Sequence record: PV841871.1
Reading direction: 5' to 3' (one strand)
Source of the DNA: Escherichia phage Ivi
DNA: 44,890 nucleotides
In this document: positions 43,218 to 43,486 of the stretch, in pieces
How the letters are laid out: the number at the start of each line of letters is the position of its first letter
How positions within the stretch are numbered: the stretch's first letter is position 1
Notes under the pieces: model-generated
The model's database searches: none
What the model was told of the DNA's origin: nothing
Seen by the model: only the letters and a program-made list of their open reading frames with translations
Made by a program: the position numbers and the translations under genes

Positions 43218-43246
43218 TTGACTTTTACTTAAAAATATGCTAAGCT
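43218..43246 (+). promoter_or_regulatory. promoter TTGACT-N17-TAAGCT preceding structured RNA element B
   Basis: Same hexamers and spacing as 10914-10942. Confidence 0.45.
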
Positions 43247-43360
43247 CACTGAGCTTGTGAGATATCGCAAGCGACCGCGGAGCGGCAGGGAACGCAACGC
43301 GTGCCATTAGGCACTTGAGTGTAGTTCCGCTGGCGCTTTCGGAAGGGCCAAAGTCTATTG
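43241..43360 (+). ncRNA. conserved structured RNA leader element, copy B (paralogue of 10937-11056)
   Basis: Conserved blocks GAGCUUGUGA, CAAGCGACCGCGG, UGAGUGUAGUU, UUCGGAAGGGCCA; covarying hairpin GUGCC-AUUA-GGCAC. Confidence 0.4.
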
Positions 43361-43427
43361 TTAATCCCGCCTAAATACCCAAGTCACTGATAATTAAAAG
43401 TTTATATAGTTGCCGTAAGCAAGGTAG

Positions 43428-43486
43428 AGAGTACTTCACTCCGCTGGGGTGGGCTAACGCCCACCCACTGCGTTGCGTACTCTTTT
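43428..43486 (+). terminator. compound intrinsic terminator downstream of element B
   Basis: Outer stem AGAGTAC/GTACTCT enclosing GGGGTGGGC-taac-GCCCACCC, followed by TTTT. Confidence 0.55.

Follow-up and report, generated by a model that had tools for sequence, protein, structure and literature searches.

A conserved structured RNA, fused to its promoter, heads the capsid and tail operon of Guernseyvirinae phages and occurs in a second copy in Escherichia phage Ivi

The genome of Escherichia phage Ivi (PV841871.1) carries at two places what looks like the same promoter followed by the same RNA: copy A lies ahead of the morphogenesis genes and copy B in a 477-bp intergenic region beside a divergent HTH gene (42928-43110), a setting that the original prediction described correctly. 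This raises the question of what the module is, why a phage should carry two of them and what it may do for the genes behind it. We addressed this question computationally in the whole stretch of 44,890 nt (hereafter the window) and in related phages. By megablast the region belongs to Kagunavirus (Guernseyvirinae), with matches in 204 Escherichia, Salmonella and Raoultella phage records and Escherichia phage vB_EcoS_fFiEco03 as the closest one. When phages are isolated for biocontrol or therapy of Salmonella and E. coli, members of the Guernseyvirinae (Jersey-like and K1G-like) are among those obtained most often. The coordinates of the features are given in Table 1.

Table 1. Features of the two modules and of their surroundings, in window coordinates
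Feature	Position	Strand	Evidence or remark
Copy A promoter with palindrome CTATTCGAATAG abutting the -35	10902-10942	+	custom scan (promoter itself 10914-10942)
Structured RNA element, copy A (ancestral, universal copy)	10949-11056	+	covariance model, 128 bits
Extended hairpin/terminator tA; spanin start codon (11168) 16 nt past its end	11110-11152	+	dG -22 kcal/mol
Divergent 60-aa HTH gene ("AlpA-like"), neighbour of the module	42928-43110	-	ORF list; Pfam HTH_17, 35 bits
Candidate leftward promoter of the HTH gene, TTGCTT-N17-TATACT, back to back with P_B	43142-43170	-	consensus match only
Tandem AAGATGC repeat just 5' of the P_B -35	43194-43209	+	sequence; unlike the region 5' of copy A
Module promoter P_B: TTGACT, 17-nt spacer, extended -10 TG(c)TAAGCT	43218-43246	+	custom scan; invariance across variants
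Structured RNA element, copy B, 110 nt	43251-43360	+	covariance model R1, 104 bits, E 4e-24; MFE equals consensus fold, -49 kcal/mol
P1 hairpin, GCUUGUG/CGCAAGC, about 2 nt past the predicted start	43253-43272	+	4 of 6 P1 pairs with double changes once A2 is included
P2 long hairpin, interior variable	43275-43342	+	13 P2 pairs with double changes
Single-stranded conserved tail AAGGGCCAAAGUCUAUUG, 18 nt	43343-43360	+	nearly invariant in A, A2 and B
Predicted outer helix, 5' arm GUUGCCGU, contains GCCGU	43409-43416	+	fold of 43405-43520
Nested "compound" hairpin and UUUU, module T1	43427-43486	+	dG -32 kcal/mol (hairpin 43427-43484)
Predicted outer helix, 3' arm ACGGCAAC	43506-43513	+	fold of 43405-43520; arm kept before the class I promoter in all relatives
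"Class I" promoter-like repeat for the gene at 43588, TTGCAC-N17-TACTAT	43526-43554	+	repeat, five copies in the window

A structured RNA joined to an extended -10 promoter

Comparison of the intergenic region with the window by blastn aligned 43218-43360 with 10914-11056 at 78% identity (E 2.8e-25), the homology running from the -35 hexamer to the end of the tail (...UCUAUUG) and similarity being nil upstream of the -35. These alignments indicate that A and B are genuine paralogs, a single structured RNA attached in both places to the same promoter, and that promoter and RNA have been duplicated, inherited and conserved as a single unit. The hexamers, the 17-nt spacing and the TG are the same at 10914-10942 and 43218-43246, which agrees fully with the likeness of the two promoters originally predicted, and promoters of the exact TTGACT-N17-TGn-TAAGCT type were found by a custom scan at only two places in the window, 10914 and 43218. 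The conserved element that had been placed at 43241-43360 is upheld by the paralogy and by its covariance model score, but that span takes in the -10 hexamer; the RNA proper probably starts at about 43251-43253.

P_B consists of a -35 TTGACT (43218-43223), a TG (43238-43239) and a -10 TAAGCT (43241-43246). Throughout the A and B variants the TG and both hexamers are invariant, and the base following the TG varies. A simple consensus promoter scan listed neither copy's promoter because TAAGCT has only three of the six consensus positions; the promoters were called from the extended -10 and from the conservation of the hexamers and the TG across variants. The perfect palindrome at copy A (10902-10913) is centred near -41.5 of its promoter and is absent at copy B, and this difference, set against the AAGATGC repeat at copy B, suggests that the two promoters may differ in regulation. 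The -10 hexamer recurs at the transcript start, as TACGCT acc TACGCT in A2 (the leader of a second lineage, described below) and as TAAGCT..TGAGCT/GAGCTT in A and B, and such a -10-like repeat could give a sigma-dependent pause while the RNA folds.

Copies A and B each fold independently to the same shape of P1, P2 and tail, with a linker of two nucleotides between the hairpins. The base of P2 is invariant (CCG, a bulged C and GGNGCG, paired with CGCN'UU and CGG). Variants of the element were gathered from IMG/VR and GenBank phages and used to build the covariance model R1, whose 73 aligned matches have paired bases in 96% of the cells and double changes in 10 pairs, as compared with 34-45% pairing when the columns were slid by 1-3 positions. 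With A2 included, 94.9% of the cells pair and 17 of the 28 pairs are double-changed, four of them in P1, against 33-44% in the slid controls. Since the alignment was fitted to the model these figures are flattered, and several features are visible in the raw sequences too, where the N-N' pair of the P2 base is seen as C-G, U-A and A-U and the terminal helix of P2 is replaced wholesale between lineages. Conserved G.U pairs assign the structure to the RNA of the + strand. Judging from this covariation, the fold is real and strand-specific.

An all-against-all covariation scan for a pseudoknot or tertiary partner of the tail gave lineage artefacts only. One compensatory change is seen in CCGYG/CRCGG, a local hairpin that competes with the P2 base and may represent an intermediate in folding. 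Just past the tail lies a repeat of the 5' strand of P1, as GCUUGUG twice in A (10951-10957 and 11053-11062) and as GCUUUCAG twice in A2; both repeats change together between the A and A2 lineages, and copy B has no such repeat. Two further kinds of reading were discarded by eye. A leader peptide or mini-ORF after the SD-like GGAAGGG varies in frame and start among variants, and when the tail was compared with the consensus sequences of boxA, ops, the CsrA site, the consensus pause and the RNase E site, none fitted all variants.

Conservation of the leader and the slot that holds copy B

In about 450 phage genomes A or A2 lies directly upstream of the spanin and capsid genes. The element itself retrieved 180 records by blastn, and tblastn of the capsid protein against phage records gave about 461 with at least 80% identity. 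From promoter to start codon the A leader measures 266 nt, and in 177 of the 180 phage records its identity is 95% or higher; between the window and Jerseyvirus FSL SP-101 it is 95-100% identical, against an average of about 76% for the flanking genes. A homologue search with the MCP gave close relatives only; the A2 lineage, which blastn with the window copies misses, emerged from the tblastn search against phage records and comprises about 269 Salmonella Jerseyvirus records with the leader in the same place (for example, positions 985-1215 of one examined relative locus). Its promoter reads TAGACT-N17-TG-t-TACGCT and its P1 is wholly different in sequence (UACGC-UUUCA-GCGUA), the base of P2 is unchanged (CCG, a bulged C and GGUGCG opposite CGCAUU and CGG) around a different interior, and the tail reads AAGGGCC(A/G)AGCU(C/A)UAUUG. 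A2, as these alignments have it, keeps the fold with a new sequence, and A and A2 together cover essentially all Guernseyvirinae records.

Salmonella phage SLMP1 (NC_073208) has the whole P2 interior deleted, leaving a minimal hairpin, CCGCGGUGCGG-ACGCAUUCGG (238-291 of the examined locus), which reflects a minimal element that is still viable or else an error of assembly; provided that the assembly is right, the deletion defines P1, the P2 base and the tail as the core. The nearest outgroup, PMBT28 (capsid 44% identical), lacks the element, and 5,426 E. coli genomes gave no match to it. An origin in the host was likewise rejected, a pattern scan of 185,579 species genomes having given 79 chance matches and one mis-binned Kagunavirus contig, and a 14-mer scan of IMG/VR returned mostly chance among the matches listed. 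Three records deserve mention for their filing: JAEWLW010000073.1 is a 6.2-kb Kagunavirus contig binned in a Bacillota MAG, OR594183.1 (phage vB_EcoM_SHAK7858) is filed under Autographiviridae/Kayfunavirus with a Kagunavirus sequence, and PP935706.1, a 164-kb "Salmonella phage" record with three copies of the element, is probably a concatenated assembly. Rfam 15 gave zero matches at the gathering threshold over the whole window and, in a search at E<=10, only matches of E ~1 at the locus (OrzO-P and ctRNA, dismissed as noise); six cassette loci searched at E<=0.1 also gave zero. We found no paper describing the RNA, and genome papers give only predicted promoters and terminators. The structured RNA is thus previously undescribed, and it is subfamily-wide.

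Copy B has a different standing. A second copy occurs in only about 40 genomes (222 places in the 180 records), and about 90% of related genomes have a single one, A or A2. Two copies heading two rightward units, as had been noted, is therefore right for the window, with A at morphogenesis and B at the early, lysis and packaging side, but it is not general. Loci around the HTH gene were collected from IMG/VR contigs and each was read; the slot between this gene and the class I promoter (window 43111-43525) proved to be a cassette hotspot occupied by B1, B2, B3, A-like, X, Y or Z, each cassette being non-coding and having its own sigma-70-like promoter. The window carries B1, and some relatives B2, B3 or A-like copies; most phages, Jerseyviruses included, have instead the unrelated structured RNA cassette Y, with promoter TTGACA-N17-TAAGGT, and others have X or Z. 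Copy B is a lineage-specific duplicate that has taken the place of a different cassette where the rightward early/lysis/packaging side begins.

Cassette Y, a common occupant of the slot in Jerseyvirus and K1ind-like phages (e.g., 35090-35330 of one examined relative), is a further conserved structured RNA, with a variable hairpin that shows compensatory changes and with no Rfam match. Y and the A2 leader share the tail motif GGGCAAGCUCUAUUC, found within GGGC-AAGCUCUAUUC in Y and GGGCCAAGCUCUAUUG in A2.

The neighbouring HTH protein had been put forward as an AlpA-like partner of the RNA, and this proposal was not sustained. Besides HTH_17 it matches generic HTH families only, with no match to Phage_AlpA (PF05930) at E<=0.1, and no AlpA or Q structures are among its PDB matches. 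In the IMG/VR loci an identical protein adjoins B1, B2, B3, A-like and unrelated X cassettes, and no co-variation of the protein with cassette type was seen. The HTH protein may regulate the divergent promoters; nothing ties it to the RNA.

Hairpins behind the element and operon layout

The layout was read from a relative's annotation together with ORF, promoter and terminator maps of the window. Replication genes run leftward from the HTH gene (42928-43110) down to about 30355. The first rightward side extends from 43588 round the window end through small genes, holins, endolysin, terminase and portal to 10241, and is closed by a bidirectional terminator at 10246-10264; PHROGs lists ten small downstream proteins as of unknown function throughout. 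The second rightward operon begins at 11168; its first genes are those for spanin, scaffold, major capsid protein (12450-13499), head completion and tail tube, and it has two strong terminators inside it (13516-13535 and 18001-18018). The promoter scan of the window gave no + strand promoter besides that of copy A before the capsid and tail genes, and there is no space for another between tA and the spanin gene. Given this sole promoter, the closed preceding unit and the two internal terminators, particle production would depend on transcripts that start with the copy A RNA and pass the hairpins. A 529-aa ORF on the minus strand (11952-13541), opposite the scaffold and capsid genes, was rejected as a gene and taken for a shadow ORF, the relative's annotation and tblastn both favouring the + strand genes.

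Each copy is followed by a hairpin that is a putative terminator. At copy A, the tA core (11123-11142) is followed by UUUACUUA and shows compensatory changes in relatives; the A2 hairpin is followed by UUAGCGUAU, a poor U tract. The lower stems are conserved in structure with a different sequence (GAUAAG/CUUAUC in A and UAUACG/CGUAUA in A2), and one relative has a perfect 17-bp stem. At copy B, the compound terminator of the original prediction is present as a nested hairpin (43427-43484) followed by UUUU; the prediction did not recognise that it is one of three interchangeable modules, and it missed the outer helix. The apical stem of T1 is GGGTGGGC/GCCCACCC and only four U follow (43483-43486), partly paired with an upstream AGA; the terminator scan of the window did not list the hairpin at 43427-43486. 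T1 also follows B1, Av-like, Y and Z cassettes in relatives, and the three modules (T1, T2 and T3) combine freely with different upstream cassettes. The outer helix (43409-43416/43506-43513) encloses the terminator hairpin in the predicted fold and would form only on read-through RNA; the GCCGU of its 5' arm is common to T1, T2, T3 and both the A and A2 leaders. Module T3 of relatives contains a variable (CUCA)n microsatellite of 3-6 copies and has an antisense-like match to the class I 5' UTR and ribosome-binding site that lie downstream, with a duplex energy that beats 98-99% of shuffles; the same pairing of the window's T1 with the downstream 5' UTR was no better than shuffles.

The class I promoter announced for the gene at 43588 is also there, with TTGCAC (43526-43531), a 17-nt spacer and TACTAT (43549-43554). 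It belongs to a repeat of about 40 nt, CTCTTGCACACCCCAAyATAATAGGATACTATTC, found at 68-115(+), 10847-10806(-), 20042-20006(-), 39847-39885(+) and 43525-43561(+), which precedes early-looking genes on both strands and has a conserved spacer with an inverted repeat, AATAG..CTATT, that may be an operator. The repeat of about 40 nt was noted in the genome paper of a relative among PHIRE "phage promoters".

Possible functions of the leader and comparison with known systems

On the ground of a conserved RNA fold with an unchanging position and of the layout of the operon, we infer transcription from the promoter, terminator activity at the hairpins, polymerase contact and read-through, and tentatively favour a cis-acting leader for processive antitermination of the put or canT kind. 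We regard this as possible rather than probable, and divide its weight evenly between a factor-free and a factor-assisted form. Host sigma-70 RNA polymerase would start at the extended -10 and make P1, P2 and the tail within the first 110 nt. The nascent RNA would then engage its own polymerase, either directly, as put, EAR and canT are thought to do, or via a host or phage factor, the active core consisting of P1, the tail and the base of P2, where the bulged C and the tandem G.U pairs lie. So modified, the complex would pass the following hairpin or terminator and further terminators within the operon, polymerases arriving from elsewhere would stop, and copy A would serve the morphogenesis operon in every member of the subfamily.

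The antitermination leader is favoured because the architecture parallels HK022 put and Tn916 canT with its insulating terminator. In agreement with it, the element lies between a promoter and a hairpin or terminator, with more terminators inside the operon; promoter and RNA are conserved and duplicated as a unit, and the conservation of the A leader is far above that of its flanks; the A2 lineage keeps the fold with new sequence; and no antiterminator protein is annotated in the window or its relatives. Of the shared regulatory RNA or antitermination site originally proposed, the two structured paralogs have thus held, and antitermination would be the most economical reading of the architecture. 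Several points speak against it: similarity to put or to any Rfam family, EAR included, is nil; the hairpins may be poor terminators, with four U at tB and the poor tract of A2; a constitutive factor-free antiterminator alone would not explain late timing; and partial read-through of moderate terminators could suffice without antitermination. A stronger form of the antitermination leader, which we consider unlikely, is a new sequence-unrelated class of self-sufficient RNA that would reprogram the E. coli/Salmonella RNA polymerase with a core of small hairpin, bulged G.U-rich helix and 18-nt tail, the tail shared with Y being the part by which a broader family of operon-head RNAs would contact the polymerase or a factor.

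The leader might instead be the binding site of a phage or host protein, either a nut-like site at which an antiterminator would load or an operator hairpin through which a late protein would exert feedback or control translation, the RNA itself being inactive. An invariant bulged hairpin base and a single-stranded tail are features that proteins read, the distal part of P2 varies and can apparently be dispensed with, late timing would follow from dependence on a factor, and the phages have many small early proteins without known function; yet the annotations contain no RNA-binding regulator, be it of the ARM type, the Q type or another, the terminal loop varies, unlike that of boxB, and the window tails fail the boxA consensus at the essential G2/C3, which leaves this explanation somewhat unlikely in our view. 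Module B, together with a terminated fraction of module A, could also be a stand-alone trans-acting small RNA of about 235 nt, serving as a decoy that titrates the binder of the A leader, as a sponge or as an anti-defence RNA. Copy B does have the layout of such a gene (its own strong promoter, a hairpin with U run as its own putative terminator, and a separate promoter for the next gene), which also counts against the antitermination leader, and in its slot non-coding cassettes with promoters of their own (X, Y, Z) replace one another, as is typical of accessory loci. Copy A does not have this layout: the universal copy, A or A2, is fixed ahead of the late operon, and no promoter follows it. 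As the window's T1 module showed no target complementarity and there is no similarity to known sRNA families, we hold the small RNA to be distinctly unlikely.

The remaining two explanations seek the function in the hairpins behind the element. In a device for mRNA processing or stability, the long hairpins (tA, tB, the outer helix) would act as sites of the RNase III type or as stem-loops protecting the 5' end, with the upstream element steering how the RNA folds or is processed. The lower stems kept as structure with different sequence, a further point against antitermination, fit an RNase III or stability element, as do the perfect 17-bp stem of one relative, the poor U tract of A2 and an outer helix predicted only on read-through RNA; but it is left unexplained that conservation is highest 60-90 nt upstream, in P1, the tail and the base of P2, and that these parts travel with the promoter, and we judge this device improbable. 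A riboswitch or attenuator, whose aptamer would sense a ligand or the cell state and switch the downstream terminator via alternative pairing, would account for the order of promoter, conserved structured domain, terminator and genes, and the CCGYG/CRCGG hairpin that competes with the P2 base, with its one compensatory change, could be read in its favour. However, the same type of element is joined to different terminators and the same terminator to unrelated elements, and this shuffling disfavours a riboswitch-type attenuator and fits a mechanism indifferent to the terminator. Moreover, no conserved anti-terminator pairing was seen, Rfam gave no riboswitch match, and the element consists of two plain hairpins with a deletable distal part, which makes this explanation highly improbable.

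Whichever explanation holds, the most conserved non-coding sequence of Guernseyvirinae genomes is a structured RNA fused to the promoter that heads the capsid and tail operon, and its natural variants (A, A2, B1-B3) and natural minimal version should help structure-function work. If it is not an antiterminator, it would still be an essential-looking cis element of use for annotation, as a late-expression cassette in phage engineering and as a marker of the subfamily.

The antitermination leader has several counterparts among known systems. Lambda nut, whose boxA and boxB work with N and Nus factors, likewise combines a hairpin and a conserved single-stranded motif near an operon start; unlike at nut, the order of the motifs is reversed and no N-like protein is annotated. 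The essential boxA positions are G2, C3, C5 and U6 (PMC3177189); the A2 and Y tails (GCUCUAUU) match six of eight rrn boxA positions, and the window tails, A-C-U-C-U-A-U-U in A and A-G-U-C-U-A-U-U in B, do not keep G2/C3. Nor is there a boxB with a conserved GNRA-like loop such as an arginine-rich N protein reads, the loops being GUAA, AUUA, CUCG, UGUAG and CACA and distal P2 being deleted in SLMP1. With lambda PR'-qut-tR' (6S RNA) and Q, and with AlpA of P. aeruginosa, the module shares a constitutive-looking promoter, a leader of about 200 nt that ends in a terminator with lysis or late genes directly behind it, and, where the transcript begins, a -10-like repeat that could give a sigma-dependent pause. 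Q and AlpA recognise DNA, and RNA structure is not required for their action. Here, in contrast, the RNA fold is conserved, and no Q or Phage_AlpA family protein was found nearby.

Tn916 canT is a leader RNA with an insulating terminator in a 452-nt region (PMC11658703). Like canT and the EAR of B. subtilis, the element is proposed to let only transcripts from the proper promoter pass insulating and internal terminators; unlike it, those leaders belong to Gram-positive hosts, are larger and have no homology with it, EAR being in Rfam, where it did not match. The closest parallel is HK022 put, in which two hairpins are made from about +3 of an operon with downstream terminators (PMC9378689). 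As in put, two adjacent bulged hairpins stand at the very start of a phage operon's transcript, P1 and P2 beginning about 2 nt after the predicted start with terminators downstream; as with putL and putR, two paralogous copies stand at two operon heads and no dedicated protein is known; and a -10-like hexamer lies in the early transcribed region. The element differs from put in its length (110 nt against about 70 nt), in a conserved 18-nt single-stranded tail that put lacks, in its carrier, a virulent siphophage and not a lambdoid one, and in that its activity on RNA polymerase is only proposed; the mark of put is processive antitermination through factor-independent binding to the beta' zinc-binding domain of RNA polymerase. 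Homology with put was rejected, as the R1 covariance model run with filters off against the HK022 put regions gave only noise at E>2, away from the put sites. To our knowledge, RNA-only processive antiterminators comprise very few systems (put, EAR and canT). If the Guernseyvirinae leader is an antiterminator, it would be an independent further RNA-only example, acting on the best-studied RNA polymerase.
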